A stretch of DNA of 56,678 nucleotides from Pseudomonadota bacterium (GTDB lineage Bacteria > Pseudomonadota > Alphaproteobacteria > SHVP01): NCBI GenBank assembly GCA_022566715.1, contig JADFIH010000003.1, positions 1-56,678 of the forward strand. The letters are read 5' to 3'. Under the pieces are notes generated by a model. That model worked only from the letters and a program-made list of their open reading frames with translations. It made no database searches and was not told where the DNA came from. A program made the position numbers and the translations under genes. Every line of letters starts with the position of its first letter. The first letter of the stretch is position 1. Shown one piece after another: positions 21,748 through 36,791 of the stretch.

Positions 21748-23322
21748 GTGAGCGCCGCCCAGCCGCTGCGGCGGCGCACCACCGACCGGGCGACGCGCGC
21801 GCGCGACAAGGTCAAGCCGCTTCGCGAAGTCGCCGCGATCGCGAAACAGGCCCAAGAACAGGGGCGCACCGTCGTGCTGGCGCACGGCGTCTTCGATCTC
21901 GTCCACCTGGGTCACGTCCGCCACCTCGAGGCGGCCGAGAAGGAAGCCGATGTCCTGATCGTGTCGGTGACGCCCGACCGCTTCGTCAACAAGGGCCCGG
22001 GCCGCCCCGTCTTCGGCGAGCCATTGCGCGCCGAAATGCTGGCGGCGCTGGAATGCGTCGATTGGGTGACGATAAGCAATTGGCCGTCGGCCGAGGAACT
22101 CATCACCCTGATCAAACCGGACGTCTACATCAAGGGCTCGGACTATTCCAACGAGGGCGACGACATCACCGGCAAGATCGGCGCCGAACGCGCTGCCGTC
22201 GAACGTCATGGCGGCCGGGTCATCACCACCGAGGACATCACGTTTTCGTCCTCCGCCCTGATCAACCGCAACTTCAACGTCCTCGACCCGGAGGTCATGG
22301 AATACCTGGGCGGCCTGAACCAAGAACAGTTCCTGCGGACGGCATTGGAGGCCATCGACGGCATCGCCGATATGCGCGTCCTGCTGGTCGGCGAGACCAT
22401 CATCGACGAGTACCAGTACGCCAAACCGATGGGGAAGTCGGCCAAGGAAAACATCATCGCCAGCCGCTTTCAGGGCCGCGAGGTCTTCGCCGGCGGGGTG
22501 ATCGCGGCGGCCAATCACGTGGCCGATTTCTGCCGCGACGTCGGCGTAATCACCATCTTGGGCGAGCGCGATTCCTATCAGGATCTCATCCTCGACACGG
22601 TGCGTCCCAACGTCAAGGTGCATCCCCTGTTCAGGCGCGGCGTCCCGACCATCCGCAAATGCCGGTTCGTCGATCCCGGTCACATGCGCAAGATGTTCGA
22701 AGTCTACTTCTTCGAGGATGAGCCGATCAGCGGCAATCTGGAAAAACAATTGGCCGACATGATCGGCGACAAGGCGCGCGATTTCGACGTTGTCATCGTG
22801 ACCGACTTCGGCCACGGCATGATGACGGACAGGGCCATCCGCATGGTCACCGAGTCCGCCAAGTTCCTCGCCGTCAACGCCCAAAGCAACAGCGCGAATC
22901 TCGGTTACAACCTGATCACGCGGTATCCGCGGGCTGACTACGTCTGCATCGACGCGCCCGAGGCCCAGCTCGCCGTGGGCGACCGCTTCAGCGACATCGC
23001 CGACCTGATCGCCACCGATCTGCGCGCGGCCATCGACTGCCGCAACTTCGCCGTGACGCACGGCGAGCGGGGCTGCGTCGTCTATTCGCCATCGACCGGC
23101 GTTCGGCGCGTGCCTGCGTTTACCCGCCAAGTGGTGGACACGGTCGGCGCGGGGGATGCGTTCCTGGCGGTCACCTCGCCGATCGTCGCGGCGGGCACGA
23201 ACATGGAGGTCGCCGGATTCATCGGCAACGCCGTCGGCGCGCTGAAGGTCGGCATCGTCGGCCACCGCCAATCGGTCGAGAAGATTCCAGTCAAAAAGTA
23301 CATCACGACGCTTCTCAAGTAA
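21748..23322 (+). CDS. Bifunctional sugar nucleotidyltransferase (N-term) / PfkB kinase (C-term), HldE-like with inverted domain order
   Basis: HGVFDLVHLGHVRHL (HxGH), KPDVYIKGSDY; C-terminal DTVGAGDAF PfkB signature. Confidence 0.88.
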   Translation: MSAAQPLRRRTTDRATRARDKVKPLREVAAIAKQAQEQGRTVVLAHGVFDLVHLGHVRHLEAAEKEADVLIVSVTPDRFVNKGPGRPVFGEPLRAEMLAALECVDWVTISNWPSAEELITLIKPDVYIKGSDYSNEGDDITGKIGAERAAVERHGGRVITTEDITFSSSALINRNFNVLDPEVMEYLGGLNQEQFLRTALEAIDGIADMRVLLVGETIIDEYQYAKPMGKSAKENIIASRFQGREVFAGGVIAAANHVADFCRDVGVITILGERDSYQDLILDTVRPNVKVHPLFRRGVPTIRKCRFVDPGHMRKMFEVYFFEDEPISGNLEKQLADMIGDKARDFDVVIVTDFGHGMMTDRAIRMVTESAKFLAVNAQSNSANLGYNLITRYPRADYVCIDAPEAQLAVGDRFSDIADLIATDLRAAIDCRNFAVTHGERGCVVYSPSTGVRRVPAFTRQVVDTVGAGDAFLAVTSPIVAAGTNMEVAGFIGNAVGALKVGIVGHRQSVEKIPVKKYITTLLK

Positions 23323-23343
23323 CCGCTATAAGGCATTGGTGAT

Positions 23344-23958
23344 ATGAGAAAAATTATCGACGAATACTTCGAGACCCTGGGCGCGCTTCCGGCCCGGCTG
23401 GAATCGACCGACCGGGTCGGGCGTTCCCTGCCCATCGAGCGGGTTTTCGAGCAAGTGATTGCACTGGCGCGCCAGGCCCACGACGGCGGCTACAAACTGA
23501 TGTTCATCGGCAACGGCGGCAGCTCGACGATCGCCAGTCACATGGCCGAGGATTTCTCCAAGGCGGCGAACATCCGCGCCATCGCCTTCAACGATCCGGC
23601 ATTTCTGACCTGCTTGGGCAACGACCTCGGTTTCGATCAGATTTTTTCCAAGCAGATCGAGCTCTTCGCCAAGGCGGGCGACGTGCTGGTGGCGATCTCG
23701 AGCTCCGGCAACTCGCAAAACATTCTCAACGGCGTGCTGGCGGCGCGCGAGAAGGGCTGCACGGTCGTCACCCTGAGCGGCTTCGGCCCGGACAACAGCC
23801 TGCGCGGCCAGGGCGACTACAACATCTATGTGCCGAACAGCGAGTACGGCTTCGTCGAGATCACGCACTCCGCCATTTGCCATGCGATCCTCGATATCGC
23901 CATGGGGTGGCGGGGCGGCGAGCAGGAGGCGCCGGGTCCCCGCGCGGTCTCCGCATGA
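23344..23958 (+). CDS. SIS-domain phosphosugar isomerase, GmhA-like
   Basis: GNGGS, GNDLGFDQIFSKQ, AISSSGNSQN motifs. Confidence 0.88.
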   Translation: MRKIIDEYFETLGALPARLESTDRVGRSLPIERVFEQVIALARQAHDGGYKLMFIGNGGSSTIASHMAEDFSKAANIRAIAFNDPAFLTCLGNDLGFDQIFSKQIELFAKAGDVLVAISSSGNSQNILNGVLAAREKGCTVVTLSGFGPDNSLRGQGDYNIYVPNSEYGFVEITHSAICHAILDIAMGWRGGEQEAPGPRAVSA

Positions 23959-24962
23959 GCGCCGAAACGCGAAAGTGGCACGTCCTCGTCACCGGCGGCG
24001 CGGGCTATGTGGGCAGCGCGCTGGTGCCCAAGCTGATCGAGGCCGGGCATCAGGTGACCGTGCTCGACCTCTATCTGTTCGGGGACCATATTTTCGAGAG
24101 CCTAGGCGCCAATGGATGCTTGCGCGAGGTCAAGGGCGACCTGCGCGATCCGGCGATGGTCGAAAGCGCGCTGACGGGCTGCGACGCCGTGATCCATCTC
24201 GCCTGCATCTCGAATGATCCGAGTTTCGAGCTCAACCCGGCCCTCGGGAAATCGATCAACTACGACTCCTTCCGGCCCCTGGTGCGGGCGGCCAAGCGGG
24301 CAGGGGTCCGGCGCTTCATCTACGCCTCGTCGTCGAGCGTCTACGGCATCAAGGACGACCCCGAGGTTACCGAGGATCTCCCGTTGGACCCCCTCACGGA
24401 CTATTCCAAGTACAAGGCGATGTGCGAGAAGGTGCTGGCCGAGGAGCGCGAGCCCGGCTTCGTGACCCTGACCATCCGGCCCGCCACCGTGTGCGGCTAC
24501 GCCAAGCGCCTGCGCCTCGACCTGACCGTCAACATCCTCACCAACCACGCCGTCAACAACGGCCGCATCACCGTCTTCGGGGGCAGCCAGAAGCGGCCCA
24601 ACCTCAACATCGAGGACATGACCGACCTGTACGTCCAGTGCCTCCAGTACCCGAACGAGCTGATCGACGGCAAAACCTACAACGCCGGCTATGAAAACCA
24701 CGCGGTCGCGGACATCGCCGAGATGGTGCGCGGCGCCGTCGGCAACGGCGTCGAGGTGGTGACCGAGTCCACCGACGATCTGCGCTCCTATCACGTCTCG
24801 TCGGCGCTCATCAAAAAGGAACTCGGCTTCGTGCCGGTGCATACCATCGGCGACGCCGTCACCAGCCTGGTCGAGGCCTTCCGCGCCGGCAAGGTGCCCA
24901 ACCCCATGACGGACAAGGCCTACTACAACATCAAGACCATGCAGGCCCTCGATCTCAAGTAG
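23955..24962 (+). CDS. NAD-dependent nucleotide-sugar epimerase/dehydratase (extended SDR)
   Basis: TGGAGYVG, ASSSSVYG, YSKYK (YxxxK); ATGA overlap with the upstream gene. Confidence 0.92.
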   Translation: MSAETRKWHVLVTGGAGYVGSALVPKLIEAGHQVTVLDLYLFGDHIFESLGANGCLREVKGDLRDPAMVESALTGCDAVIHLACISNDPSFELNPALGKSINYDSFRPLVRAAKRAGVRRFIYASSSSVYGIKDDPEVTEDLPLDPLTDYSKYKAMCEKVLAEEREPGFVTLTIRPATVCGYAKRLRLDLTVNILTNHAVNNGRITVFGGSQKRPNLNIEDMTDLYVQCLQYPNELIDGKTYNAGYENHAVADIAEMVRGAVGNGVEVVTESTDDLRSYHVSSALIKKELGFVPVHTIGDAVTSLVEAFRAGKVPNPMTDKAYYNIKTMQALDLK

Positions 24963-24972
24963 GACGGGCCCG

Positions 24973-24998
24973 TTAACACTCTGTCAACCAACAGTTAA
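24973..24998. promoter_or_regulatory. Internal phased CtrA half-site array
   Basis: TTAA-N7-TCAA-N7-TTAA (24973, 24984, 24995) in the only sizeable (72-nt) gap of the operon. Confidence 0.6.
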
Positions 24999-25034
24999 TA
25001 GCTTCGGTGCGGAATGGGGCAGAGACCGTAGCGA

Positions 25035-25667
25035 ATGCGCATCGGCGTTGATTTCGACAATACGATCGCCAAGTACGATCGCCTTTTCGCGGCCCTTGCG
25101 GTCGAGGGCGGGCTGCTGCCTTGCGCGCCGGAAGGCGGGAAGACGGCCGTGCGCGACGCGGTGCGGGCCCTGCCCAACGGCGACGAGGAATGGCAACATC
25201 TTCAGGCCAAGGCGTATGGCGCGCGCATGGCCGAAGCCGATCTTTCCGCCGGCTTCAGCCGCTTCGTGGCCCGCTGCCGGGCCAGGGGACTGCCCCTGTT
25301 CATCGTCAGTCACAAATCGGCCCGCTCGCAGATCGAACCCACCGGGCCGGGCCTGCGCGCGGCGGCACTGGCCTGGATGGAAAGCAAAGCCTTCTTCGAC
25401 CCAAGCTATTTCGGCTTCGACCGCGAGGCGGTCTATTTCGAAGACACCCGGGCCCAGAAAATCTCCCGAATCCGCGACCTCCACTGCACCCATTTCATCG
25501 ACGATCTGGTGGAGGTGTTCGAGGAGCCGGACTTCCCGGACGATGTGCTTGGCCTTCTTTTAACCTCTCGGGACGATGGCGCCGATCCGGCCAACGTCGT
25601 CCGTTGCAAGTGCTGGAATGATGTCACGCTCCAACTTCTCGAACCTTTGGCCGGGCATGCTGCCTAA
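25035..25667 (+). CDS. HAD-superfamily phosphatase
   Basis: IGVDFDNTI (DxD motif I), VSHK, HFIDDL. Confidence 0.82.
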   Translation: MRIGVDFDNTIAKYDRLFAALAVEGGLLPCAPEGGKTAVRDAVRALPNGDEEWQHLQAKAYGARMAEADLSAGFSRFVARCRARGLPLFIVSHKSARSQIEPTGPGLRAAALAWMESKAFFDPSYFGFDREAVYFEDTRAQKISRIRDLHCTHFIDDLVEVFEEPDFPDDVLGLLLTSRDDGADPANVVRCKCWNDVTLQLLEPLAGHAA

Positions 25668-26697
25668 ACGCCAGACCGACACCGATGCCGTCGCCGCAAT
25701 CGCGGCGCGGCTTTCGGGTGCGCCGGTGTCCTCCGTCACTCAGGTGCTGGGCGGTGGCAACAACCGGATATTCCGGATCGAGGGCGCGGCGGGTTTGACC
25801 TTTGCCCTGAAGGTCTATTATGCCGAGGACGGCGGCGGCGCCAAACGCCTGCGGGCCGAGTACAACGGACTCGAGTTCCTCTGGCGCAACGGCGTACGCC
25901 GGATCCCGCAGCCGATTGCCCACGACGCCCACAACGACTGCGCGCTTTACTCGTGGATCAACGGCACGGCGATCGGCGAGCCCAGGTCGGCCGACATCGA
26001 CGCCGTGCTCGACTTCATGGCCGTCCTGAAACAGGCCTCGCTCGATCCGGCGGCGCCCAGCCTCGCGCCGGCGCGCGAAGCCTGCCTGTCGGCAAGCGAG
26101 CTGGTCGGCCAAATCCGCCAGCGCCGCGAGCGCCTCGACCGGCCGGCCCAGACCGATTCGGGCCTTTCCAAATTCCTCTTCACTGAATTCGATGAGGCTC
26201 TCGTCGTACTCGTCGAGGCGGCGCGCCGGAGTTACGCGAGCCGCGCCGCCGACATCTCCTCGGATTTAGCGCGGGTCAGTCAAACCCTGTCGCCGTCGGA
26301 TTTCGGTTTTCACAACGCGTTGCGTCAGGAAGACGGATCGCTGGTCTTCCTCGATTTCGAGTACTTCGGCTGGGACGACCCGGTAAAACTGACATCCGAT
26401 TTTCTCCTCCACCCCGCGATGCGCCTGACCGAAGAGTTGCGCCAGCGCTTCTCCGACGGGGCAGACCGGCTGTACGGGGGCGACCTAGGGTTTACGCAGC
26501 GCCTGGACGCGCTGTTCGCGCTCTATGGGCTGCGCTGGGCGACGATCGCTCTCAACGAGTTTATCTCGGAGGAGTGGGCGCGCCGGTCCTATGCGCGCGG
26601 CGAAGTGGACCGCGAACGGGTGCTCAACCTGCAGCTTGAAAAGGCGCGCGCTCTGGTCGGCAGGGCCTTGAAGGGGCAGGTCGGCAATGCCGCTTGA
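25657..26697 (+). CDS. Aminoglycoside-phosphotransferase-like kinase
   Basis: GGGNNRIF, ALKVY, SPSDFGFHN, FLDFEYFGWDD motifs. Confidence 0.82.
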   Translation: MLPKRQTDTDAVAAIAARLSGAPVSSVTQVLGGGNNRIFRIEGAAGLTFALKVYYAEDGGGAKRLRAEYNGLEFLWRNGVRRIPQPIAHDAHNDCALYSWINGTAIGEPRSADIDAVLDFMAVLKQASLDPAAPSLAPAREACLSASELVGQIRQRRERLDRPAQTDSGLSKFLFTEFDEALVVLVEAARRSYASRAADISSDLARVSQTLSPSDFGFHNALRQEDGSLVFLDFEYFGWDDPVKLTSDFLLHPAMRLTEELRQRFSDGADRLYGGDLGFTQRLDALFALYGLRWATIALNEFISEEWARRSYARGEVDRERVLNLQLEKARALVGRALKGQVGNAA

Positions 26698-27544
26698 GGC
26701 GCGACAAGCGCACGGCTCCCACACCACCGCGAAAACGCCGAACCTCGACGAACGTTCCCTGGCCCTGCGGCGCCTGGTCATCAAGGCCCTGGAGGGCGGC
26801 GGCCGCGGCCATTTGGGATCGGCCCTGTCCCTGATCGAGATTCTGCGGGCGCTTTACGACGACACCCTGCGCTTCGACTCCGCCAGGCCGGATTGGCCCG
26901 AGCGCGACCGGTTTATCCTCAGCAAGGGGCACGGCTGCCTCGCGCTCTACGCCATTCTTGCCGACAAGGGCTTTTTCCCGATGGCGGAGCTGGTCAAGTT
27001 CTGCCACTTCGACGGCATCCTCGGCGGCCACCCCGACGCGGGAAAGGTTCCAGGCGTCGAGGCCTCGACCGGCGCGCTGGGCCACGGCCTGCCCATCGGG
27101 CTCGGTCTCGCCCTGGCCGCGCGCCTGCAGAAACGGGACTCGCGCGTGTTCGTGGTCATGGGCGACGGCGAGATCAACGAGGGCTCCGTCTGGGAAGCCG
27201 CCATGTGCGCGGGCAAGCACAACTTGTCCAACCTCACCGCCATCGTCGATTACAACAAGCTTCAGTCCTACGGCCGGACCGCCGAGGTTCAGGACCTCGA
27301 GCCCCTGGCCGACAAATGGCGCAGCTTCGGATTCGCTGTTCACGAGGTGGACGGTCACGATATGGCGGACCTAAATCGGACTTTTTCCGCCTTGCCGCGC
27401 GACCCGAACCGTCCCTCCGCCGTGATCTGCCACACCGTCAAGGGCAAGGGCATTTCCTACGCCGAAGGCAGCCCCGCCTGGCACCACAAATCGAAGATCA
27501 GCGATGAGGAAGTCGTCGCCCTCTACAAAGAACTGGAAGCCTAG
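26687..27544 (+). CDS. Transketolase N-terminal (TPP-binding) subunit
   Basis: GHLGSALS, RDRFILSKGHG, GDGEINEG...DYN TPP motif, HTVKGKG. Confidence 0.93.
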   Translation: MPLEARQAHGSHTTAKTPNLDERSLALRRLVIKALEGGGRGHLGSALSLIEILRALYDDTLRFDSARPDWPERDRFILSKGHGCLALYAILADKGFFPMAELVKFCHFDGILGGHPDAGKVPGVEASTGALGHGLPIGLGLALAARLQKRDSRVFVVMGDGEINEGSVWEAAMCAGKHNLSNLTAIVDYNKLQSYGRTAEVQDLEPLADKWRSFGFAVHEVDGHDMADLNRTFSALPRDPNRPSAVICHTVKGKGISYAEGSPAWHHKSKISDEEVVALYKELEA

Positions 27545-27546
27545 CC

Positions 27547-28479
27547 GTGCGCCGCACCAGCCTCGACATGGTCTATGAGCTCGCCAAACAGGACGAGCGC
27601 GTGGTGTTCATCGGCTCCGACCTGGGGGCGGGAACGCTCGACGCCTTTCGCGACGAGATGCCGGACCGATTCTTTATGGAAGGCGTGTCCGAAGCCAACA
27701 TCATCGGCATGGCGGCGGGCCTCGCCATGGACGGCTTCATCCCCTACGTCAACACCATCGCCACCTTTCTGACCCGCCGCTGCTTCGAGCAGGTGGCCAT
27801 GGACCTGTGCCTGCATAACCTGCCGGTGCGTTTGATCGCCAACGGCGGAGGGCTGGTCTACGCGCCGCTCGGACCGACCCATCTCGCCATCGAGGACATG
27901 GCCATCATGCGCGCCCTGCCGCGGATGACCGTGGTGGCGCCCGCCGACAAGGAAGAAATGGCCCGCTTCATCCCCCTGACCCTCGATCTGCCGGGGCCGG
28001 TCTATATCCGGCTGGGCAAGGGCGGCGACCCCATCGTGTCGGACGAGCGCAAGGGGTTCACCGTCGGCAAGGCCATTCTCATGCGCGAGCCCGGCCGCGT
28101 GTTGCTGGTCAGTACGGGCGTGATGACGAACCGGGCGCTGACCGCGGCGGAACTCTTGAATGAGTCCGGTCTTGGCTGTGGCGTGCTTCATATGCACACC
28201 GTGAAGCCGCTCGACGATGAGGCCCTTCTCGATTTGGCGTCTCAGGTCGAGGCGATCGTGACCATTGAAGAGCATACCCTGGTCGGTGGCCTGGGAAGCG
28301 CGGTGCGCGATCTTCTTTGCGACCGCCTGGTTACCGCGGCGCCGCCGGTGCTGCGGCTCGGCATCCCCGACACCTTCCCCGACAAGTACGGTACGCAAGA
28401 CGACTTGCTGGCGTATTACGGCCTGCAGCCCGACGCGCTCGCCCATTCGATCCGCGAGTTCGCCGCCAAGGTCGGTTAG
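27547..28479 (+). CDS. Transketolase C-terminal (pyrimidine-binding) subunit
   Basis: GVSEANIIGMAAGLA, GPTHLAIED, PVYIRL, TIEEH...GGLGS. Confidence 0.93.
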   Translation: MRRTSLDMVYELAKQDERVVFIGSDLGAGTLDAFRDEMPDRFFMEGVSEANIIGMAAGLAMDGFIPYVNTIATFLTRRCFEQVAMDLCLHNLPVRLIANGGGLVYAPLGPTHLAIEDMAIMRALPRMTVVAPADKEEMARFIPLTLDLPGPVYIRLGKGGDPIVSDERKGFTVGKAILMREPGRVLLVSTGVMTNRALTAAELLNESGLGCGVLHMHTVKPLDDEALLDLASQVEAIVTIEEHTLVGGLGSAVRDLLCDRLVTAAPPVLRLGIPDTFPDKYGTQDDLLAYYGLQPDALAHSIREFAAKVG

Positions 28480-28486
28480 ACCGGGC

Positions 28487-29302
28487 ATGGCGGCGGCGGA
28501 GGCCTATTTCAGCGCGCACGACGCGGACCTCGCGGAACAGTTCCTCGCCGATGGTCATATCGTTTTTCCGGTTGAAGACCGGCCGGCGCTGGACCGGCTG
28601 CGCGGCGCCGTTGCCGGCCTGGCCGCCGAGCACCTTGGCGAAGGGCCCCCCCGTGAAGCAGGTGAATTTCTAAACACGATTCATGAGCGCGTGGGAGCCG
28701 GAAACCTCAACACCCTGCGCCTCGCCATTTTCAACGGCATCAACGACGAGGACTGGCTCCGGCCGGCCTATTTCGGACTGGCCCGTGGCGCCCTGGAAAC
28801 CCTTGTGGGAAACGAGCTGGCGATGCAGCGCCGCATCAATCTCAGCATTCAGCTGCCCAAGGACGATTCATCGCTGCTGCCGGTTCATGCCGATGTCTGG
28901 AGCGGCGATTCGCCCTTCGAGGTGGTGGTCTGGCTGCCGCTGGTCGATTGCTACGCCACCAAGTCGATGTTTTTGCTGCCTCCCGAAGCGAACCGGGAGG
29001 CGGAAGCGCGGCTGGGCGAGTTCAGCGGGCGCAGCGCCGAGGACCTGTTCCGGTCCATCGAGCCCGACGTGGAATGGCTCGATATTCCCTACGGCAAGGT
29101 GCTGCTGTTCTCGCAAAACCTGATGCACGGCAACCGCATCAACCAGGAACCGGAGACGCGCTGGACCATGAACTGCCGTTTCAAATCGTTGTTCTCGCCC
29201 TACGCCGAGAAGCGTTTGGGCGAGTTCTTCGAGCCCATCACCATCCGGCCCGCCACGCGGCTCGGCATGGCGTACCGGCTGCCCGGCGGGTTCAAGGAGT
29301 AG
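28487..29302 (+). CDS. 2OG-Fe(II) oxygenase of the 'sporadic carbohydrate cluster' type
   Basis: HxD (PVHADVWSGDSPFE), distal His (LMHGN), RWTMNCRFK; adjacent to a LIC12192-like gene. Confidence 0.8.
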   Translation: MAAAEAYFSAHDADLAEQFLADGHIVFPVEDRPALDRLRGAVAGLAAEHLGEGPPREAGEFLNTIHERVGAGNLNTLRLAIFNGINDEDWLRPAYFGLARGALETLVGNELAMQRRINLSIQLPKDDSSLLPVHADVWSGDSPFEVVVWLPLVDCYATKSMFLLPPEANREAEARLGEFSGRSAEDLFRSIEPDVEWLDIPYGKVLLFSQNLMHGNRINQEPETRWTMNCRFKSLFSPYAEKRLGEFFEPITIRPATRLGMAYRLPGGFKE

Positions 29303-29306
29303 CCGG

Positions 29307-29720
29307 GTGGACGATGTGCGGACCAGTCTGGGTTACCGGGGCTACATCGCGAGCCGTCCGGTGCGCGGCGCCTCCACGCCGCAGCACGTTCAGAACCTCG
29401 TCATTCGCGACTATGCGGCGCGCAATGGGCTCGACTTCAAACTGTCGGCGACCGAGTACGCCATGGACGGCTGTTACCTGATGCTCGAATCGGTTCTGGA
29501 CGACCTGGCCAACCTCGACGGCATCATTCTCTACAGCGTTTTCATGCTGCCCCGGGACCCGGCCCGCCGCAACGCGGTCTATCGCAGCGTGCTCGACTCG
29601 GCGAAGACCCTCCACGGCGCGCTCGAAAATCTTCAACTCGGCGACGGCGGCGACGTGAAACGCCTTGAGGACATTTTCCTCGTCGCCCAGTTCGTGCCCT
29701 CCACGGCGCCGAGCTTCTGA
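29307..29720 (+). CDS. Sporadic carbohydrate cluster protein (LIC12192-like family)
   Basis: GYRGYIASRP...PQHVQNLVIRDY...LSATEYAM pattern. Confidence 0.75.
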   Translation: MDDVRTSLGYRGYIASRPVRGASTPQHVQNLVIRDYAARNGLDFKLSATEYAMDGCYLMLESVLDDLANLDGIILYSVFMLPRDPARRNAVYRSVLDSAKTLHGALENLQLGDGGDVKRLEDIFLVAQFVPSTAPSF

Positions 29721-29724
29721 GCCC

Positions 29725-30387
29725 ATGGCCTACATCGATTTCATCGGGCGGCTGCACACGGCGACCAAGCGCGATTATCTGGAGCGTGTGACCGCGCACG
29801 ACAAAGCGGAGTGCGCGGAGGTCGCTTGCAAGTTCGGCAAGGACTATTGGGACGGCGACCGCAGGTTTGGTTTCGGCGGCTATACGTACGATGGCCGATG
29901 GCTGAAGGTCGCCGAGGCCATGGCCGAGCACTATGGACTGAAACCCGGCGCGCGTATTCTCGATGTGGGGTGCGGCAAGGGATTTCTGCTTTACGAGTTC
30001 ACCCGCGTGGTCGCCGGCGCGGACGTGCACGGCATCGACATCTCGGCTTACGCCCTCGAGCACGCCAAGGAAGAGGTGAGGCCAAACCTCACCGAGGGCT
30101 CGGCGACGGAGCTGCCATTCGACGCGGATAGCTTCGATTTCGTGTTTTCGATCAATACCTTACACAATTTTTACAACCATGACCTTCACCGCGCGGCGGC
30201 GGAGATCGAACGAGTCGGCAAGGGCGCGGCGCACATCTCGATCGAGTCCTACCGCAACGAGCGGGAAAAGATGAATCTCCTTTATTGGCAACTCACCTGC
30301 CGCGCCTTCTTGACGCCGCGGGAATGGGAGTGGGCGTTCGCGCAGGCAGGATATACGGGGGACTATGGCTGCATCTTTTTTGAGTAA
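29725..30387 (+). CDS. Class I SAM-dependent methyltransferase
   Basis: ILDVGCGKG, GIDIS, LPFDADSFDFVFSINTLHN. Confidence 0.9.
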   Translation: MAYIDFIGRLHTATKRDYLERVTAHDKAECAEVACKFGKDYWDGDRRFGFGGYTYDGRWLKVAEAMAEHYGLKPGARILDVGCGKGFLLYEFTRVVAGADVHGIDISAYALEHAKEEVRPNLTEGSATELPFDADSFDFVFSINTLHNFYNHDLHRAAAEIERVGKGAAHISIESYRNEREKMNLLYWQLTCRAFLTPREWEWAFAQAGYTGDYGCIFFE

Positions 30388-31090
30388 GTTTCGCGCCGCG
30401 CCGGTTCGATCGCCAGGGCAGTCGAAGGAGCCGCAATATCAGGACGCCTTCGAACTTGCCGCGAAGCAGGGCCTGACCAGCCTTGGCTTGATGACCAATC
30501 AGGTTTGGCACGATGACCCACGCCGTCTGGGCATCGTTCTCGCGCGCTACAAGTTCACCGCCAAAATGTTGAGCGGTGCCCGGCGCGTCCTCGAAGTCGG
30601 CTGCGCCGACGCGTTCGGCACGCGGATCGTTCAGCAGGAAGTGGGGGTGGTGACAGCGTTGGACTTCGATCCCGCGTTCATCGCCGACATCGAACGCCGC
30701 AAGGACCCGTCCTGGCCCATGGAGACCGCCCTGCACGACATGCTCGATGGGCCCTTCGGCGGAGATTTCGACGCCGCCTACAGCCTCGATGTGCTGGAGC
30801 ACGTCGATCGCTCCAGCGAGACCGCGTTCATCGGCAACCTGACGCGCTCGCTGACGCAGCACGGCGTCCTCATAATCGGAACGCCCAGCTTGTCGTCCCA
30901 GGCCCATGCCTCGCCCGCCAGCAAGGAGGGGCACGTCAACTGCAAGAGCGCCGAGACCTTGAAGACGCTTCTGCAGGAGTTCTTCCAAAACGTGTTCATC
31001 TTCTCGATGAACGACGAAGTCGTGCACACGGGGTTCTACCCGATGGCGCATTACTACTTCGCCCTGTGTTGCGCGCCGAAGGAGCGTTGA
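30365..31090 (+). CDS. Class I SAM-dependent methyltransferase
   Basis: VLEVGCADAFG, FDAAYSLDVLEHV, IIGTP. Confidence 0.88.
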   Translation: MAASFLSKFRAAPVRSPGQSKEPQYQDAFELAAKQGLTSLGLMTNQVWHDDPRRLGIVLARYKFTAKMLSGARRVLEVGCADAFGTRIVQQEVGVVTALDFDPAFIADIERRKDPSWPMETALHDMLDGPFGGDFDAAYSLDVLEHVDRSSETAFIGNLTRSLTQHGVLIIGTPSLSSQAHASPASKEGHVNCKSAETLKTLLQEFFQNVFIFSMNDEVVHTGFYPMAHYYFALCCAPKER

Positions 31091-31091
31091 T

Positions 31092-31982
31092 GTGCCCCTG
31101 CCCGGGAGCGTCCTGGTCGTTGGCGCCGACGGCCTGATCGGGGCCGCGTTGGTTCGCCGCCTAAGCCGCGGCGGTTCGCGCGTTCTTTCGACCAGCCGCC
31201 GCGCCGCGTCCCATGCCACGTTTCAGGTGGACCTCGCGGCGCCCGGCGCATGGCCCGCCCTGCCCAAGGTCGATGCGGCCGTCCTGTGCGCGGGCAATAC
31301 CTCGATCAGCGCCTGCGCGGAGAACCCCGCCGCCAGCGCCGCCGTTAACGTGACCGGTCTGTCGGCGCTCGCCGACCGGCTGGCGGCGCAAGCGGACATG
31401 GTGCTGCTGCTTTCCAGCAACCAGGTTTTCGACGGCGGCGTCCCCCGGCGCGGCCGCGCGGACGGGACCTGTCCCGTTTGCCAATATGGCCGCCAGAAGG
31501 CCGCCGCCGAGGCCCATGTTCTTGGTTTGAGGGGCGGCGCGGTGCTGCGGCTGACCAAGGTTTTGACGCCGGATCTTGCGCTGCTTACCGGCTGGTGCGC
31601 GGACCTCGCGGCGGGCCGGCCGGTGACCCCCTTCGACAACTTTCCCCTGGCGCCGGTGACGCTGGACTTCGCCGTCGATACTATCGTCGACATACTTTCG
31701 CGGGGCCAGCCCGGCGTTTACCAGGCCTCGGGCGCGGATGATCTCACCTACGCCGACCTTGCGCGCGCCCTGGCCGGGCATGTAGGCGCCGACCCCGGAC
31801 TGGTCACTCCGGTGCAAGCAGTCGCGGCCGGGCTCGGCTTCGAGCGGCTGCCCCGCTATTCTACTCTCGAGATGGAGCTGGAGGAGGCGCGGTTCGGGCG
31901 GGCCGCGCCGGCGTCAGACAGCGTCCTTGAGGAGGTGATCCGGCCGATCGTCCTCACGGGCCGCGCCGTGGCGCACGGGTAG
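31092..31982 (+). CDS. RmlD-like NDP-4-keto-sugar reductase (SDR)
   Basis: VVGADGLIG, SSNQVFDG, YGRQK (YxxxK). Confidence 0.82.
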   Translation: MPLPGSVLVVGADGLIGAALVRRLSRGGSRVLSTSRRAASHATFQVDLAAPGAWPALPKVDAAVLCAGNTSISACAENPAASAAVNVTGLSALADRLAAQADMVLLLSSNQVFDGGVPRRGRADGTCPVCQYGRQKAAAEAHVLGLRGGAVLRLTKVLTPDLALLTGWCADLAAGRPVTPFDNFPLAPVTLDFAVDTIVDILSRGQPGVYQASGADDLTYADLARALAGHVGADPGLVTPVQAVAAGLGFERLPRYSTLEMELEEARFGRAAPASDSVLEEVIRPIVLTGRAVAHG

Positions 31983-34904
31983 CGCCGGCACCTCGATCGT
32001 GCGCGGCGGGTTCCCCGCGAGATAGTTTTCCATCATCAGCTCGAAACCCGATTCGAGATGGCCGGTTAAACGCCCAATATCGAACAGCGGATGAGTGTCG
32101 CGGTTGGCCTGCAGCTTGGCCTTGAGCGCGGCGAGCTCGGCGGGATTTCGGGCCAGCGAAAGCGCTTTCGATTCGTATTCGGTCATGGAATAGGTGGTGA
32201 GCTCGGGCGCGCCGATGGCGCTGACCAGACTTGCGCCGTTGCGCGCGGGCGGCGCATCACCCCAGAGAGTTAGGACCGGCACCCCCACCCACAGGGCGTC
32301 CGTCGTCGTCACGCCGCCGCCGTGGAAAAGATTGTCCAGGCAGAGATCCACGTGGTGAATCCGCGCCAAGTGATTCGGGTGGAGGATCGTGTTCGCGAAA
32401 CACAAGCGTGCGGGATCGACGCCACGCTTCTTGGCTTCCAAACGGAGGTTCTTGCGGCTTGTCTTGGTACCGCCCATGAACCAAATGAGACTGCCCGGAA
32501 CCTGACGCAGAAGGCGCATCCAGATGTCGAACATCGTCGGATAGAACTTGTAGTGCGAATTGAAGTTTGCAAAGACAAAACCCTCTTCCGGCAAGCCCGC
32601 TTCCACGCGGCTTACCGGCTCGGCGATATGCTCGTGCTGCGAGGTCGCCATGAAGGTGTCGGGAAGGTAGACGAGCTTTTCCGAACAGTACTTTTGGTCT
32701 TCGGGCGGTAACTGGATCTTGTCGGTAATGAGGTAATCGATGTAATCCGCTCCGGTCGTTGAGGAAAAGCCCAGCCAATGCGCTTGAATGGGGGCGGGCC
32801 TAAACGCAAATACTTCATACCGGCCCCCACGCGTGTGGCCCGCCAGATCGACCAAGATGTCGACGCCGTTCCCGTGGATCGTGTCCGCGGCTTTCGTATG
32901 GGTCATGTTGGTGATGTCGATATATTTGTCGAAAGTGGCCTGGAAAAAACTGGTCAGGCCGTCCTCGCCGTAGGTCGTAATGGCGTAGGCCTGGTATTCA
33001 AACCTATCGGTGTTCCGTGCCCCGAGCACCGACTTGAACGCGACCGCGACGCTGTGGAAACGGAAGTCCGGGGACATGAAGCCGACCGTGATTTTTTTCC
33101 CGCGCCGCCGCCGAAATTTGTAGGGTGGCCGTGCTTTCTTCTGCTCCTCGACCTTTTCTTGGGCGCGCTTCGAAATCTGACGCGCGGCGCCGAGCTTTAG
33201 CTCCGGAGTCGCCGGGAGACTTTGAAGACCAAAGGCCGAAACGGCGACTTCCTCGCCGCGGATAACCTGCAACTCCGCGTTGGTGAGGACCTTGCTGATG
33301 ATTGCGTCAAGGTTTGTCCAACTGCACTGTTGCATCAATCCGTGCGCCAAGTAGGGATAGACCACGTCGTAGTGTTCCCTCTGGGAGAGCGCCTTTTTGA
33401 ACACCACGACCGATTCGTCGAACCGGCTCATGAGTTGGAGCAACGTGCCCAGGTTAAAATACACCTCGGTCAACTCAGGGTGGTTGTCCAGAATATCCTG
33501 ATAGGCCTTGATCGCCTTGGCATGCTGACCGGTGTCCTGGTAGGAGATGGCGAGGTTGTTCAGCGCATGCGCGTAGTGCGGCTTGATCTCCACGGCCTTC
33601 TCAAAGGCGTCGATGGCCTTTTCATGCTCGTTGTAGGCTTGGTAGGACAGGCCGATTCCGTTGTATGCCGAATAAAGCGCGGGATTTTTCTGCAGCGCCT
33701 TTTCGAACCACTGCAATGCTTCGTCGAGCCGGTCCATGGCGCGCAAGACGTTGCCAAGGTTGATCATCGCGACGTCGAGTTTCGGGTCGATCTCGGCCGC
33801 CCGCCGATATGCGTCGAGGGCCTCTTCTTGTTTTTTTAAAGCGGCATAGGAGTTTCCCAGGTTGTTCCAGGCATGGGCGGATTCCGGATTGACCTCGATG
33901 GCCTTGTTCAGGGCCTCGATTGCCTCGTCTTGCCGGTCGAGGCTTTGCAGTGCGTTTCCAAGGTTGTTGTAGGCCTCGGAAATATCGCCATGCAGCGTCA
34001 GCGCGTGCTCGAAGTGGGTTATGGCCTGTTCTGCTTCCTTCTTGGCGAGGCACAGGTTTCCGTAGTGAAACGCCACTTCCACGTCATCCGGACGCAATTC
34101 CTTGCAGCGCGCGAGGCGTTCCTCGGCTTCCTCGTACTCCCCGGTTCCGGTGAGCAGCCGGGCCAGGTGGGTCAGGGCCCCGAAGTGGTCAGGATCGAGG
34201 GCAACGACCTTCCGGAAATGATCTATCGCCTCGTCCTGCTTTGCGAGCTTTTCCAGAACGGTGCCAAAGTTACAGTGGACAGCGGCATTGTTGGGATCGA
34301 TGGAAATGGAGTGGCGGTAACTTTCGGCCGCGCCCTTGTAGTCCCCGTTGTTGAAGAGCACGCCCGCCAGGTTGTCGTGGACCTGGGCGCTTCGAGGATC
34401 GTGCTCTGCCGCGGTCGTAAAGGCCGCAACGGCGTCGGCCGTCCGGTCAAGGCCCGCAAGCGCGGCACCCAGGGCCGAATGGGCATGAGCAATCCGTGGG
34501 TTGATGTCGACGCCGCGGGATAGGGACTCAACGGCCTTCTCAAGTTCCCCCTTCGAGAGGTAAAGATTGCCAAGATTGACGTGCGCTTCGGCCAGCCGAG
34601 GGTCCAGGTCCAGTGCTGCCCGGTAGTAGTCCACCGCCTCCTCGAGGCGATTCTGGGTCTGCATGAGATTGCCCAGGTTCGAACGAACCGCAGCATCGGC
34701 GGGCTCGAGTTCGGCCGAACGCTTATAGTATTGCTCCGCTTCCTCGAACCGTTCCTGAGCGGCGACGAGGGCGCCCAGGTTCAGGAGTGCGCTGGTGTCT
34801 TCGGGAGCCGCCTTAAGGACCGCCAAGTAAGTCTTCTCGGCTTCGTCCGCCCGGCCCGCACGATGGTGTTGAAGCGCGAGCGCCAGGGAGTCGGTGGCGC
34901 GCAT
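31914..34904 (-). CDS. TPR-repeat protein O-glycosyltransferase, GT41 (OGT/SPINDLY-like); candidate flagellin glycosyltransferase
   Basis: ~520 aa of TPR repeats (A-x-x-NLG...A...Y..AL...P) then GFMSPDFRFHSV, DILVDLAGHT, PAPIQAHWLG, FANFN.xYK, GGGVTTTDALWVGVPVLT. Confidence 0.88.
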   Translation of the reverse strand: MRATDSLALALQHHRAGRADEAEKTYLAVLKAAPEDTSALLNLGALVAAQERFEEAEQYYKRSAELEPADAAVRSNLGNLMQTQNRLEEAVDYYRAALDLDPRLAEAHVNLGNLYLSKGELEKAVESLSRGVDINPRIAHAHSALGAALAGLDRTADAVAAFTTAAEHDPRSAQVHDNLAGVLFNNGDYKGAAESYRHSISIDPNNAAVHCNFGTVLEKLAKQDEAIDHFRKVVALDPDHFGALTHLARLLTGTGEYEEAEERLARCKELRPDDVEVAFHYGNLCLAKKEAEQAITHFEHALTLHGDISEAYNNLGNALQSLDRQDEAIEALNKAIEVNPESAHAWNNLGNSYAALKKQEEALDAYRRAAEIDPKLDVAMINLGNVLRAMDRLDEALQWFEKALQKNPALYSAYNGIGLSYQAYNEHEKAIDAFEKAVEIKPHYAHALNNLAISYQDTGQHAKAIKAYQDILDNHPELTEVYFNLGTLLQLMSRFDESVVVFKKALSQREHYDVVYPYLAHGLMQQCSWTNLDAIISKVLTNAELQVIRGEEVAVSAFGLQSLPATPELKLGAARQISKRAQEKVEEQKKARPPYKFRRRRGKKITVGFMSPDFRFHSVAVAFKSVLGARNTDRFEYQAYAITTYGEDGLTSFFQATFDKYIDITNMTHTKAADTIHGNGVDILVDLAGHTRGGRYEVFAFRPAPIQAHWLGFSSTTGADYIDYLITDKIQLPPEDQKYCSEKLVYLPDTFMATSQHEHIAEPVSRVEAGLPEEGFVFANFNSHYKFYPTMFDIWMRLLRQVPGSLIWFMGGTKTSRKNLRLEAKKRGVDPARLCFANTILHPNHLARIHHVDLCLDNLFHGGGVTTTDALWVGVPVLTLWGDAPPARNGASLVSAIGAPELTTYSMTEYESKALSLARNPAELAALKAKLQANRDTHPLFDIGRLTGHLESGFELMMENYLAGNPPRTIEVPALPVRHGAAREDDRPDHLLKDAV

Positions 34905-34927
34905 AGGCCGGTTCTAGGGTGCCGTGG

Positions 34928-34942
34928 TTAAGGATCGGTAAT
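34928..34942. promoter_or_regulatory. Degenerate CtrA box upstream of the GT41 gene
   Basis: TTAA-GGATCGG-TAAT, 24 nt upstream of the start codon. Confidence 0.45.
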
Positions 34943-34982
34943 GAACCACGCCGCGCGGGTTCTCGCCGGGGCCTGCCCGGAA

Positions 34983-35145
34983 GGCATAAAATTCCCGGCA
35001 AATCTTGCTTAAATCGGAACAATTTCCCCCATTTCGCGGGACGGCGCTCGGGACCATCTGGCTTGATGTGACAGAAATACTATAATAATATCAACGGATT
35101 ATATCAGTTTTCTCGCCCATTAGATGGACTGGCACAGGCGTTGCG
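34983..35145 (+). promoter_or_regulatory. Flagellin 1 promoter: ftr-like sites + IHF site + sigma54 box
   Basis: ftr-like 13-mers at 34983, 34997, 35016; perfect IHF WATCAANNNNTTR (TATCAACGGATTA, 35089-35101); TGGCACAGGCGTTGCG at 35130-35145. Confidence 0.85.
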
Positions 35146-35203
35146 CTAAGGGGAGTATCCGAAACCCTAGGCTGTGAGCCACCTCGCGAAGAGGAGATAG
35201 AAA

Positions 35204-36019
35204 ATGGTTTTGTCAGTTAACACAAATGTCGGGGCGATGGTGGCCCTGCAGAATCTCAACATCACGAATAAATTGCTGGAGAAAACCCAGCTCAGGATTA
35301 CCACAGGCCTGAAAATCAACGGGCCCAAGGACGACGCGGCGACTTATGCCATCGCGCAAAACATGCGTGGCGATATCGGGTCGTTCCGGGCCGTGAGAAT
35401 CGCTTTGTCGGCGGGTGAGTCCACGGTCAACGTGGCGATCAGCGCCGCCAAGTCCATTTCCGACCTGATGATCGAGATGAAGGCCAAGGTGGTGCAGTCC
35501 AACCAGGCAGGTCTCGACAGCCAGTCGCGGACCGCGTTGCACAACGACTTCAAAGCGTTACGGGACCAGATCGACACGATTGTCCAGACCGCCAAGTTCA
35601 ACGGCAAGAATCTCATCGAGATCAGCGCCACCAACATGACGGTTCTGAGCACGGTCGACGGCAGCACGATTACCGTCAGTGCACAGAGTATGGATACCAC
35701 GACGCTCGCCATCAACACGTCGATTTTGACGAGCAGTTCGGGCGCCGCGAGCGCGCTGACCGCGATCAATACGGCCATGACGCTTGTCACCGACAAGCTC
35801 GCGGCTCTTGGTTCTTCGGCCAAGCGTATCGAAGTTCAGTCCGACTTCACCGTCAAGCTGGTGGACATCCTCAGGGCAGGCGTGGGCAACCTCGTCGATG
35901 CGGACTTGGCGGAAGAGAGCGCTAGTTTGCAGGCCTTGCAGATCAAGCAGCAGCTTGGCATTCAGGCGCTGGCCATCGCCAACTCGGGCCCGCAGAATAT
36001 TCTCGCGCTCTTCCAATAG
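35204..36019 (+). CDS. fliC: Flagellin 1 (271 aa, minimal D0/D1 type)
   Basis: SVNTNVGAMVALQNL, RITTGLKINGPKDDAA, C-terminal GVGNLVDADLAEESA.LQALQIKQQLG.QAL.IAN. Confidence 0.96.
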   Translation: MVLSVNTNVGAMVALQNLNITNKLLEKTQLRITTGLKINGPKDDAATYAIAQNMRGDIGSFRAVRIALSAGESTVNVAISAAKSISDLMIEMKAKVVQSNQAGLDSQSRTALHNDFKALRDQIDTIVQTAKFNGKNLIEISATNMTVLSTVDGSTITVSAQSMDTTTLAINTSILTSSSGAASALTAINTAMTLVTDKLAALGSSAKRIEVQSDFTVKLVDILRAGVGNLVDADLAEESASLQALQIKQQLGIQALAIANSGPQNILALFQ

Positions 36020-36063: not shown

Positions 36064-36456
36064 ATGCCATTGAAAGTAACTTTGAAGCCCCGCGAAAGGT
36101 TCGTCCTGAATGGCGGCGTCTTGGTGAACGGCAACCGGCGTACCGATCTCATCATCGAGAATCAGGTGTCCCTTCTTCGCGAGCGCGACATCCTGCATCC
36201 CGACGAGGCCAATACGCCCGTTCGCCGCATCTACTTCGCCATCATGATGATGTACCTGGAAGAGGCGCTCGAAAGCCCGTTCTACCAGGAGTTCGTCGAC
36301 CGCATCACCGAATTCATGTGCGTCGTTACAAGTAAGGAAATACTCGGCAAGTGCCACCAGATCTTGGACGACGTTCATGAGCAGCGGTTCTATTCGGCCC
36401 TCATGACGTGCAAAACGCTTCTGCCCTTTGAAAAAGAGAGGTTGGAAAATGTCTGA
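36064..36456 (+). CDS. flbT: Flagellin post-transcriptional regulator FlbT, copy 1
   Basis: MPLKVTLKPRERFVLNGGVLVNGNRR...LRERDIL..DEANTPVRRIYF...FYSAL...LLPFE. Confidence 0.93.
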   Translation: MPLKVTLKPRERFVLNGGVLVNGNRRTDLIIENQVSLLRERDILHPDEANTPVRRIYFAIMMMYLEEALESPFYQEFVDRITEFMCVVTSKEILGKCHQILDDVHEQRFYSALMTCKTLLPFEKERLENV

Positions 36457-36781
36457 AGCAGCCGTCGCCATGCAGAGCGACCCCCGCGGCACGGAGTACA
36501 AAGTCTTCGATCGCGTCACCAAGGCCCTGTCGTCGTCCAAGGACAAAGCTCTGGACGACAAGGACTATCTGGAAGCCCTCGATACGAATCGCCGCCTGTG
36601 GCAGGCCCTCGAAGTCGATGTCTCCTCCACCGAAAACGTCCTCCCCGACCAGTTGAAAGCAAAGATCATTTCGCTGGCGATCTGGGTCGACAAGCACTCC
36701 GCCAAGGTGACCCGCGGCGAAGCCAAGCTCCAACCCCTGATCACGGTTAACCAAGCGATCATGGAGGGCCTCGCGGCCTAG
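36449..36781 (+). CDS. flaF: Flagellar biosynthesis regulator FlaF, copy 1
   Basis: DPRGTEY, NRRLW, N.LPDQLKAKIISLAIWV, PLITVNQAIMEGL; overlaps flbT stop. Confidence 0.92.
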   Translation: MSEAAVAMQSDPRGTEYKVFDRVTKALSSSKDKALDDKDYLEALDTNRRLWQALEVDVSSTENVLPDQLKAKIISLAIWVDKHSAKVTRGEAKLQPLITVNQAIMEGLAA

Positions 36782-36791
36782 CCAAAGATCT

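Follow-up and report, generated by a model that had tools for sequence, protein, structure and literature searches.

A flagellin-linked TPR-GT41 transferase and a transketolase-containing sugar cassette form a candidate flagellin glycosylation island in an uncultured alphaproteobacterium

We analysed a stretch of 56,678 nucleotides, here called the window, which is contig JADFIH010000003.1 (our contig C142). It belongs to a metagenome-assembled genome of 3.01 Mb with a completeness of 90.4% (GenBank assembly GCA_022566715.1; Alphaproteobacteria, SHVP01). The source organism is an uncultured marine-sediment bacterium. At the edge of a flagellar gene cluster, the window carries a candidate flagellin glycosylation island composed of a cassette of sugar-pathway genes (g01 to g12) and a gene, g13, for a protein that joins an array of tetratricopeptide repeats (TPR) to a catalytic domain of glycosyltransferase family 41 (GT41). 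The 12 sugar-pathway open reading frames (ORFs) are packed at 21748-31982, all on the + strand, and converge on g13, with the 3´ ends of g12 and g13 overlapping by 69 nt. A distance of 299 bp separates the start of g13 from the flagellin 1 gene, which is transcribed divergently from it. Downstream of flagellin 1 come genes for FlbT, FlaF, FlaF, flagellin 2 and FlbT; flgI, flgH, flgA, flgG, flgF, fliM and motB-like genes follow these. A preliminary description of this DNA, made from its letters and ORFs, had seen a tightly coupled 12-gene operon converging on a TPR-GT41 gene that shares its upstream region with flagellin 1, and the ORFs and families agree with it. The genes of the island and the adjoining flagellin gene are:

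g01, 21748..23322, + strand: nucleotidyltransferase (N-terminal, PF01467) plus PfkB sugar kinase (C-terminal, PF00294); HldE-like, with the domain order reversed
g02, 23344..23958, + strand: GmhA-like ketose-phosphate isomerase, SIS domain (PF13580)
g03, 23955..24962, + strand: SDR family, nucleoside diphosphate (NDP)-sugar epimerase/dehydratase (PF01370, 130 bits)
g04, 25035..25667, + strand: HAD-superfamily phosphatase, identified by motifs
g05, 25657..26697, + strand: small-molecule kinase of the APH/choline-kinase fold, by predicted structure
g06, 26687..27544, + strand: transketolase N-terminal subunit, binding thiamine diphosphate (ThDP) (PF00456, 160.8 bits)
g07, 27547..28479, + strand: transketolase pyrimidine-binding and C-terminal subunit (PF02779 and PF02780)
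g08, 28487..29302, + strand: 'sporadic carbohydrate cluster' 2-oxoglutarate (2OG)-Fe(II) oxygenase (TIGR04324, 319.7 bits, cut-off 150)
g09, 29307..29720, + strand: LIC12192-family protein (TIGR04323, 149.4 bits, cut-off 55)
g10, 29725..30387, + strand: S-adenosylmethionine (SAM)-dependent methyltransferase 1 (PF08241, 72 bits)
g11, 30365..31090, + strand: SAM-dependent methyltransferase 2 (PF08241, 37 bits)
g12, 31092..31982, + strand: RmlD-like NDP-4-keto-sugar reductase (PF04321, 78 bits)
g13, 31914..34904, - strand: 996 amino acids (aa), with a TPR array at about residues 1-520 and a GT41 catalytic domain at 527-990; candidate flagellin O-glycosyltransferase
flagellin 1, 35204..36019, + strand: 271 aa, Ser/Thr-rich central segment (PF00669 and PF00700)

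With best-guess starts, the intergenic gaps from g01 to g12 are 21, -4, 72, -11, -11, 2, 7, 4, 4, -23 and 1 nt, such that the largest gap inside the operon is 72 nt and four gene pairs overlap; the ATG of g03 at 23955, for instance, overlaps the g02 stop codon. The families that the preliminary description had assigned to the 12 genes were borne out by Pfam and NCBIfam and, for g04 and g05, by motifs and predicted fold. The g04 protein has no significant Pfam match (best HAD match E 0.089) and a PDB sequence search with it gave nothing useful, but its HAD motifs (D6xD8xT10, S92, K142 and D156D157) are invariant across 15 homologues. The g05 protein, which has no Pfam match and no PDB sequence match, yields a model of pLDDT 90.1 that is matched by Foldseek to APH(9), LicA and NahK (E 3e-10 to 8e-8), and carries the conserved motifs SPSDFGFHN and DFEYFGWDDP. 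For g09 (model pLDDT 89.9), the best fold match is a resolvase-like alpha/beta domain. This match, to serine-recombinase catalytic domains, has a TM of 0.66 and E of 5e-4, and a protein-atlas search with g09 matched its own family only; neither assigns a function.

The cassette can be divided into module A (nucleotidyltransferase-kinase, isomerase, SDR, HAD phosphatase, kinase and transketolase) and module B (2OG oxygenase, LIC12192 protein, one or two methyltransferases and reductase). For each of the five activities that make up the ADP-heptose route, module A holds a homologue, each under its equivalog cut-off and the HAD phosphatase by motifs only: g01 scores 165 bits against the HldE model NF008454 (cut-off 521), g02 scores 97-101 bits against gmhA models, under their cut-offs (209 for the 97-bit one), and the heptose epimerase model reaches 59 bits in the cassette (cut-off 275). 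In module B, g12 is likewise under the cut-off of TIGR01214, at 75 bits. Elsewhere in the genome, contig C154 bears another gmhA-like gene, which at 186 bits comes nearer to the gmhA model, and contig C165 bears a housekeeping tkt, which makes the island copies private paralogues. The LIC12192 and 2OG-Fe(II) oxygenase genes adjoin in 27/27 related loci examined, g11 is missing from several related cassette loci, and the cassette itself contains no glycosyltransferase. Variation is also seen at the junction of the modules. Some related cassettes have about 2.3 kb extra between transketolase and 2OG oxygenase. In L134 (6911-9176), two DegT/EryC1-type aminotransferase genes in this position suggest amino-sugar versions of the cassette product; gaps between the C-terminal transketolase gene and the oxygenase gene are also present in L143, L153 and L159.

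The g13 protein fits the GT41 family. PF13844 matches above its gathering score (255.7 bits, cut-off 25), solved O-GlcNAc transferases (OGTs) align over both lobes, and TPR families span about residues 5-520, giving the N-terminal TPR fusion. PDB sequence matches place the transferase domain near human OGT (hOGT; E 5e-69) and Xanthomonas XcOGT (E 5e-67; XcOGT 138-544 aligned to domain residues 6-422), and there is no second PF13844 gene in the 90.4% complete genome. The equivalents of hOGT K842, H558, H901, R904 and D925 are kept as K786, H617, H845, R848 and D869; K842 is the catalytic-site Lys, and K842, H901, R904 and D925 bind the donor phosphate or nucleotide. Replaced are H498, Q839, K898 and H920-T921, donor-site residues that in hOGT contact UDP-N-acetylglucosamine (UDP-GlcNAc), for which g13 has F, S, H and G-V, invariantly across its family. 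The kept and replaced residues fit an active enzyme with a changed donor pocket, though they prove neither point. Relatives of g13 are numerous (858 matches at E<=1e-5 among 8000 candidates scored), and include about 100 clusters of roughly 900-1000 aa with 45-91% identity in the transferase domain, which are named only 'TPR protein' or 'O-GlcNAc transferase'; the name FlmG, discussed below, is absent from the best 120 of the 858 matches. A complex prediction for the TPR part of g13 (1-520) with flagellin (score 0.01, mark 0.32) gave no verdict and is weighed for neither side.

The pairing of this transferase with flagellin is conserved. Among loci from species-representative genomes, fetched with the g13 protein alone and with an alignment of 13 homologues, flagellin and GT41 stand head to head, about 360 bp apart, in L019, L020, L022, L024, L025, L026 and L027, and flagellins lie beside GT41 in L003 and L004 too. 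A FastTree phylogeny of 106 GT41 domains, with local support values and rows that include paralogues from the same loci, puts g13 in a starred clade (98) of 16 rows, 12 of which have flagellin within 5 kb of GT41. The remaining four are two loci at contig ends (L021 and L145), a 5-kb contig (L031), and L160, which is without flagellin in its 20 kb. TPR-GT41 tandem arrays (L005-L011 and others) have no flagellin nearby and were rejected as g13 orthologues, since the tree puts them in a separate clade of 36 rows. More distant TPR-GT41s of Burkholderia and Paraburkholderia (27-30% identity; L064, L087 and L089) lie 2-5 kb from flagellin and belong to a different major branch of the tree, and a nitrospirotal locus (L093) has TPR-GT41, split transketolase and flagellin all within 12 kb.

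Several of the paired loci have further features. Six to seven tandem flagellins adjoin GT41 in L152 and L027 (G386:C6) and in L159 (G101:C13), two genomes (G386 and G266) have three additional GT41 paralogues apiece on that contig, and in L025 (13125-16868) phage portal-like and capsid-like genes come after the GT41 gene and are probably the remnant of a prophage or a gene transfer agent.

The cassette, too, is found with this transferase. The cassette that converges on GT41 is full in the window, L003, L004, L019 and L139; it is partial or a variant in L036, L138, L145, L149, L150, L152 and L159. Thus operon, GT41 and flagellin, the combination for which the preliminary description had proposed a synteny search, recur together across related genomes. 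In 5/5 genomes whose GT41-flagellin pair has no adjacent cassette, TIGR04323 turned up at another place in the genome, surrounded by the rest of the cassette in four and by the tailoring half only in the fifth (L135). We also examined co-occurrence in 401 genomes sampled evenly across the class, given here as counts without a statistical test, as related genomes are not independent. TIGR04323 exceeds its cut-off in 24/401. At a threshold set beforehand (transferase-domain match E<=1e-90; 27/401 genomes), it is present in 13/27 compared with 11/374 others. At a stricter threshold chosen after seeing the list (E<=1e-125), which we treat as orthologue level, 11/13 genomes carry TIGR04323 compared with 13/388 others, and the 11 span seven families. 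A transferase gene and sugar genes that lie beside a flagellin locus and recur there in relatives are the genomic mark of a flagellin glycosylation island, and this is what we find.

We suggest the following model. A nucleotide-activated sugar dedicated to this system is the most likely product of the 12-gene operon. The private split transketolase (g06/g07) would supply a ketose phosphate, for example sedoheptulose-7-phosphate or a longer ketose, which the GmhA-like isomerase (g02) would turn into an aldose phosphate. The PfkB half of g01 and/or the g05 kinase, with the HAD phosphatase g04, could then yield a sugar-1-phosphate, to be activated by the nucleotidyltransferase half of g01, and g03, g08, g09, g10, g11 and g12 would tailor the NDP-sugar by oxidation, methylation and reduction. 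In the cytoplasm, the TPR-GT41 would use its TPR superhelix to bind flagellin that has yet to be exported, in the manner of FlmG, and transfer the sugar to Ser/Thr of the flagellin central segment before export. We infer the order of these steps, the identity of the sugar, the donor of the GT41 and the role of flagellin as acceptor. By analogy, our best guess for the sugar is an NDP-heptose-like compound, methylated and oxidised; the transketolase may instead have a two-carbon branching role. That the island glycosylates flagellin with the cassette's sugar through the GT41 is, from the genomic evidence, the explanation we lean towards and consider probable, with ample room for doubt. Flagellin O-glycosylation by the GT41, as the preliminary description had proposed, thus gains a flagellin-adjacent clade and co-occurrence with the cassette. 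The novelty of this kind of system does not hold, and the genome does encode an FlmG-like protein, as described below.

A number of observations weigh against this model. The heptose-like genes are far under their equivalog cut-offs, and the substrate may therefore not be a heptose. The g01 nucleotidyltransferase is of the ADP/CDP type, and the known donors of GT41 enzymes are UDP- or GDP-sugars. The replacements in the donor site also count here. Many GT41-flagellin pairs are without an adjacent cassette (for example L020, L025 and L026), and 2/13 genomes with an orthologue-level GT41 (G054 and G196) showed no TIGR04323, which indicates that the GT41 can work without the cassette or with another donor. 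In addition, 13/24 cassette genomes are without an orthologue-level GT41, and in two genomes of the same family (G343 and G213) it is module B alone that lies beside GT41 and flagellin, together with a CN-hydrolase gene.

The same cassette-free pairs and cassette-free genomes would be expected if the GT41 added a common UDP-sugar, such as GlcNAc, and the cassette were an optional accessory whose product is added by another enzyme or serves in tailoring after attachment. The closeness of the g13 transferase domain to true OGTs is in keeping with such an arrangement, as is the interleaving of cassette-adjacent and cassette-distant rows in the GT41 clade. However, there is no glycosyltransferase in the cassette and no other one among the scanned ORFs of the window, and the cassette is present elsewhere in all five unlinked genomes tested and in 11 of the 13 genomes with the orthologue-level GT41. 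Moreover, the residues replaced throughout the g13 family are ones that contact UDP-GlcNAc in hOGT. We therefore regard an accessory cassette beside an ordinary UDP-sugar transferase as unlikely.

A further point against our model is a second candidate transferase in the same genome. In reports on Caulobacter crescentus and Brevundimonas subvibrioides, FlmG is a 596-aa protein whose TPR domain, at the N-terminus, binds flagellin and whose C-terminal GT-B domain selects pseudaminic (Pse) or legionaminic (Leg) acid, and it is described as confined to Caulobacterales (PMC7591256; bioRxiv 10.1101/2022.03.25.485807; 10.1101/2023.12.03.569772). Using a degenerate pattern from the N-terminus of the window flagellin, which located Caulobacter, Brevundimonas, Phenylobacterium, Maricaulis and other loci, we assembled a putative FlmG family, gathered by position, size and taxon (Caulobacter, Brevundimonas and others) and not matched to a published FlmG sequence. 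In the 13 loci of its alignment, which come from Caulobacterales loci L181-L240, a TPR ORF of 581-642 aa adjoins flbT and flagellins. The first alignment member tested has TPR matches and no PF13844 match. Against the g13 family, hhalign aligns TPR columns only (E 1e-28) and BLASTP matches are likewise confined to the TPRs, so g13 is FlmG-like in design and not a member of the FlmG family. The C-terminal domain of the putative FlmG family is instead related to GT9-bearing proteins of genome G224 (hhalign E 1e-33, 480 columns; L297:4059-5624).

Against the picture drawn in the preliminary description, a 600-aa FlmG-like protein with TPRs and a GT9-like domain is encoded in this genome on contig C4 (C4:3740-5542, locus L302). 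By hhalign (E 1e-47, 514 columns) it matches the putative FlmG family over its full length and, judged by sequence, could be the transferase for the cassette sugar. In that case the GT41 would have another job, such as adding a second sugar or acting on another substrate. In favour of this, GT9 is by its Pfam name the heptosyltransferase family, and G224, which has no close GT41, has its cassette at a distance of 16 kb from four flagellin genes, the genes for two TPR-GT9 proteins and FliD lying between and beside them. On the other hand, the scanned neighbours of the C4 gene encode a TauD-like dioxygenase and a pentapeptide-repeat protein, with no flagellar or sugar context on the 10.7-kb contig, and the FlmG-like C-terminal domain is common anyway (151/401 class genomes at E<=1e-15, often in several copies; the count includes the unpublished G245). 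At the same threshold, the domain was not found in 7/11 genomes in which cassette and GT41 orthologue occur together. Context, commonness and absence together make the C4 protein a poorer candidate than the GT41 for the cassette transferase in this clade, and we hold its involvement in place of the GT41 to be very improbable. Separately, the spread of the FlmG-like domain is far wider than the published confinement to Caulobacterales, and most copies may not act on flagellin.

Genomes that have the cassette without a close GT41 are informative in their own right. Ten cassette genomes lacking an orthologue-level GT41 were tested, including G109 with its match at 1.8e-92, and flagellins are encoded in every one. 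In addition to G224, G021 has the cassette about 20 kb from flagellin, inside a larger sugar island, with a TPR-GT9-like gene 9 kb beyond. In G065, G306 and G218, hundreds of kb separate cassette and flagellins. The cassette thus recurs near flagellins with different TPR-linked transferases, but not always. The stretch between cassette and flagellin in G021 (L296; G021:C1:3751500-3771499) is a putative flagellin sugar island, with genes for an NDP-sugar C-methyltransferase, a TPR-GSCFA fusion and an ATP-grasp ligase, for a ThDP enzyme of the acetolactate-synthase type and a cytidylyltransferase of the CMP-sugar type, and for a GH57-like protein.

The neighbour to the left of the operon, whose membership in the system is uncertain, is:

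'FlaEY-like' SBBP beta-propeller-repeat protein, 18379..21168, - strand: 929 aa (PF06739)

Homologues of this protein, with 23-33% identity over most of the length, adjoin flagellins in Caulobacter, Phenylobacterium and Maricaulis loci (L170, L176, L201, L217, L220, L221 and L227), and in L136 and L139 a homologue sits at the cassette's 5´ end, the L136 cassette being unlinked from GT41 and flagellin. The SBBP protein may be a flagellar accessory, a second glycosylation target or something else. In L020, the GT41 gene is followed by genes for a ParA-like protein, a sulfotransferase, an ABC transporter, malonyl-CoA decarboxylase, YjeF and an amidase, all unrelated to the cassette. An amidase gene also lies left of the island in the window, and by comparison with the L020 gene order the cassette and SBBP gene look inserted or rearranged.

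An SBBP homologue flanking the cassette even when it is unlinked from GT41 could be a sign that the operon serves a different purpose. It might make a sugar for lipopolysaccharide (LPS), capsule or another part of the envelope and lie beside the flagellar cluster by chance, with the GT41 a general or regulatory OGT or an enzyme acting on another protein, for example the SBBP-repeat protein. The NCBIfam name LIC12192 derives from an LPS locus, more than half of the cassette genomes are without the GT41 orthologue, and the distance from flagellin in G065, G306 and G218 would be no surprise for an envelope sugar. Such a role is harder to reconcile with the contents of the window. As the preliminary description had noted from the letters, there is no further glycosyltransferase and no Wzx/Wzy, and we likewise found no polymerase or export gene, among the 50 window ORFs scanned with Pfam (the scan left out nine small called ORFs of 84-183 aa). 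Its remark that the window has no pse, leg, neuB or Maf gene extends to the whole 90.4% complete genome, which has no NeuB (PF03102), hence no Pse/Leg route, and no Maf (PF01973, MAF_flag10/MptE-like domain). A chance neighbourhood also sits poorly with a flagellin gene beside GT41 in 12 of the 16 clade rows, with the co-occurrence of GT41 and cassette across seven families, and with the cassette genomes lacking the GT41 orthologue, all 10 of which are flagellated among those tested, two with the cassette 16-20 kb from flagellins. As for the SBBP protein as the substrate, no homologue of it was detected beside the cassette-free GT41-flagellin pairs. An envelope sugar with a chance flagellar neighbour seems to us distinctly improbable.

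Glycosylation of flagellin with the cassette's sugar by the GT41, the model we prefer, has counterparts in described systems. It is closest in design to FlmG of C. crescentus and B. subvibrioides: both transferases are soluble, with an N-terminal TPR array and a C-terminal GT-B-type domain, are encoded beside flagellin, FlbT and FlaF, go with the same short type of flagellin (about 271-276 aa) and have a dedicated sugar pathway. They differ in the catalytic domain, which is GT41 (about 470 aa) in g13 and GT9-like in the putative FlmG family, and in the donor, which is CMP-pseudaminic or CMP-legionaminic acid for FlmG, while the genome of the window is without NeuB. With hOGT and XcOGT (PDB 3pe3, 2vsn/2jlb), g13 shares the TPR plus GT41 architecture, the whole catalytic domain being aligned, but is unlike them tied by its genome context to flagellin as candidate substrate and to a private sugar pathway.

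In Enterobacteriaceae, GT41 (SPINDLY/COG3914) transferases have been placed in silico in predicted flagellin glycosylation islands (De Maayer and Cowan, 2016, PMC4875605). GT41, sugar-biosynthesis and methyltransferase functions lie there among or beside flagellar genes, as they do here, and both cases are predictions. The enterobacterial islands differ in belonging to Gammaproteobacteria and in having most of their GT41s fused to methyltransferase domains; the paper makes no mention of transketolase, heptose or TPR, and the TIGR04323/TIGR04324 cassette is a feature of the island described here. In Burkholderia cenocepacia, deletion of flmQ (BCAL0111) is reported to give non-glycosylated flagellin and reduced motility (PMC4462625). 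The TPR-GT41s near flagellin in L064, L087 and L089, possible counterparts of FlmQ, differ from g13 in belonging to a separate clade. The Burkholderia flagellin glycan is a dideoxy-amino-hexose derivative, made by other genes.

The sugar pathway likewise has partial precedents. The ADP-heptose pathway (GmhA, HldE, GmhB and HldD) has the isomerase, PfkB kinase, HAD phosphatase, nucleotidyltransferase and SDR of the cassette, but differs in that the cassette has the reversed HldE-like order, an extra APH-fold kinase and scores far under the equivalog cut-offs. The lincomycin GDP-octose route runs through LmbR/N/P/K/O. The cassette resembles it in having its own enzyme for the ketose phosphate and differs in using a transketolase instead of a transaldolase. 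The tailoring half (2OG oxygenase, LIC12192 protein, methyltransferases and reductase) has no described counterpart. In the searchable part of the literature, we found no paper on the 'sporadic carbohydrate cluster', LIC12192, TIGR04323 or TIGR04324, and none on a transketolase-containing flagellin island; among the matches listed for flagellin glycosylation and heptose, no title concerned heptose attached to flagellin.

The preliminary description had called the island a candidate new system. This was too broad, given that the TPR plus GT-B design is already that of FlmG, that GT41 enzymes in predicted flagellin islands are in print for Enterobacteriaceae (PMC4875605), and that TPR-GT41s lie near flagellin in Burkholderia. 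What is new, as far as genome comparison can tell, is an apparently flagellin-dedicated OGT-like clade in many uncultured alphaproteobacteria, together with an uncharacterised cassette that seems to be paired elsewhere with FlmG-like enzymes. A stronger proposal would link three claims: that the cassette makes an undescribed C7/C8 or branched, methylated and oxidised sugar through a transketolase-fed, heptose-like route; that the flagellin-dedicated GT41 clade O-glycosylates flagellin with this sugar, which is not a UDP- or GDP-sugar; and that the cassette serves at least two unrelated classes of TPR-transferase (GT41 and FlmG-like GT9), following a 'TPR adaptor plus any GT-B' logic, in marine and freshwater Alphaproteobacteria. 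All three holding jointly is a tentative idea that we would not bet on.

Beyond flagellin 1, the flagellar side of the locus has the following genes and promoter-like elements:

FlbT, FlaF, FlaF, flagellin 2 (37913-38728) and FlbT genes, 36064..39667, + strand: flagellin regulators/chaperones and a second flagellin (PF07378, PF07309 and PF00669)
sigma-54-type -24/-12 element TGGCAC-N5-TTGC, 35130..35144, + strand: perfect match, 60 nt upstream of the flagellin 1 start codon
sigma-54-type element, 37808-37822, + strand: one mismatch, upstream of flagellin 2
sigma-54-type element, 39057-39071, + strand: perfect match, upstream of the second flbT

The flbT and flaF genes are thus each present twice, interleaved with the two flagellin genes, and a third flagellin, 58% identical, is encoded on contig C112. 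The element upstream of flagellin 1 is suggestive of its promoter, but sigma-54-type matches to the consensus used in the scan are not significantly enriched across the window (6 observed compared with 3.6 expected). The same scan of the window gave no such element ahead of the operon or g13, and a generic sigma-70 promoter and terminator scan was at or under shuffle expectation. Elsewhere in the window, a 251-aa ORF (15020-15775, - strand) has a sub-threshold match to HC2, a histone-H1-like nucleoprotein (32 bits, cut-off 40), and is probably a low-complexity Lys/Ala-rich protein.

The island is not confined to one assembly. Positions 30000-37000 are near-identical, at half or more of the sampled words, to sequences in 18 runs from nine studies, labelled marine sediment or marine metagenome apart from two labelled only 'metagenome'. 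In one metatranscriptome (RNA-Seq run X19), near-identical contigs cover flagellin 1 (depth 110), g03 (depth 59), the g06/g07 junction and the g09/g10 junction, and in a DNA run from this study the depth over the locus is roughly even, at 1-9, apart from two bins that have no cover. These are contigs and not reads, with DNA carry-over possible, and give a weak hint that the operon and flagellin 1 are transcribed; most of g13 is without RNA-contig cover, which is uninformative.

The GT41-cassette module is widespread in uncultured alphaproteobacteria. If our model is true, a bacterial enzyme of the OGT family would gain a defined protein substrate and a donor other than GlcNAc, and a function would be assigned to the orphan 'sporadic carbohydrate cluster' (TIGR04323/TIGR04324). 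Cytoplasmic O-glycosylation systems with soluble donors are sought for glyco-engineering, and this could be one of them. The principle known from FlmG, in which the TPR domain picks the flagellin and an exchangeable glycosyltransferase domain picks the sugar, would then reach beyond Caulobacterales and beyond nonulosonic acids.

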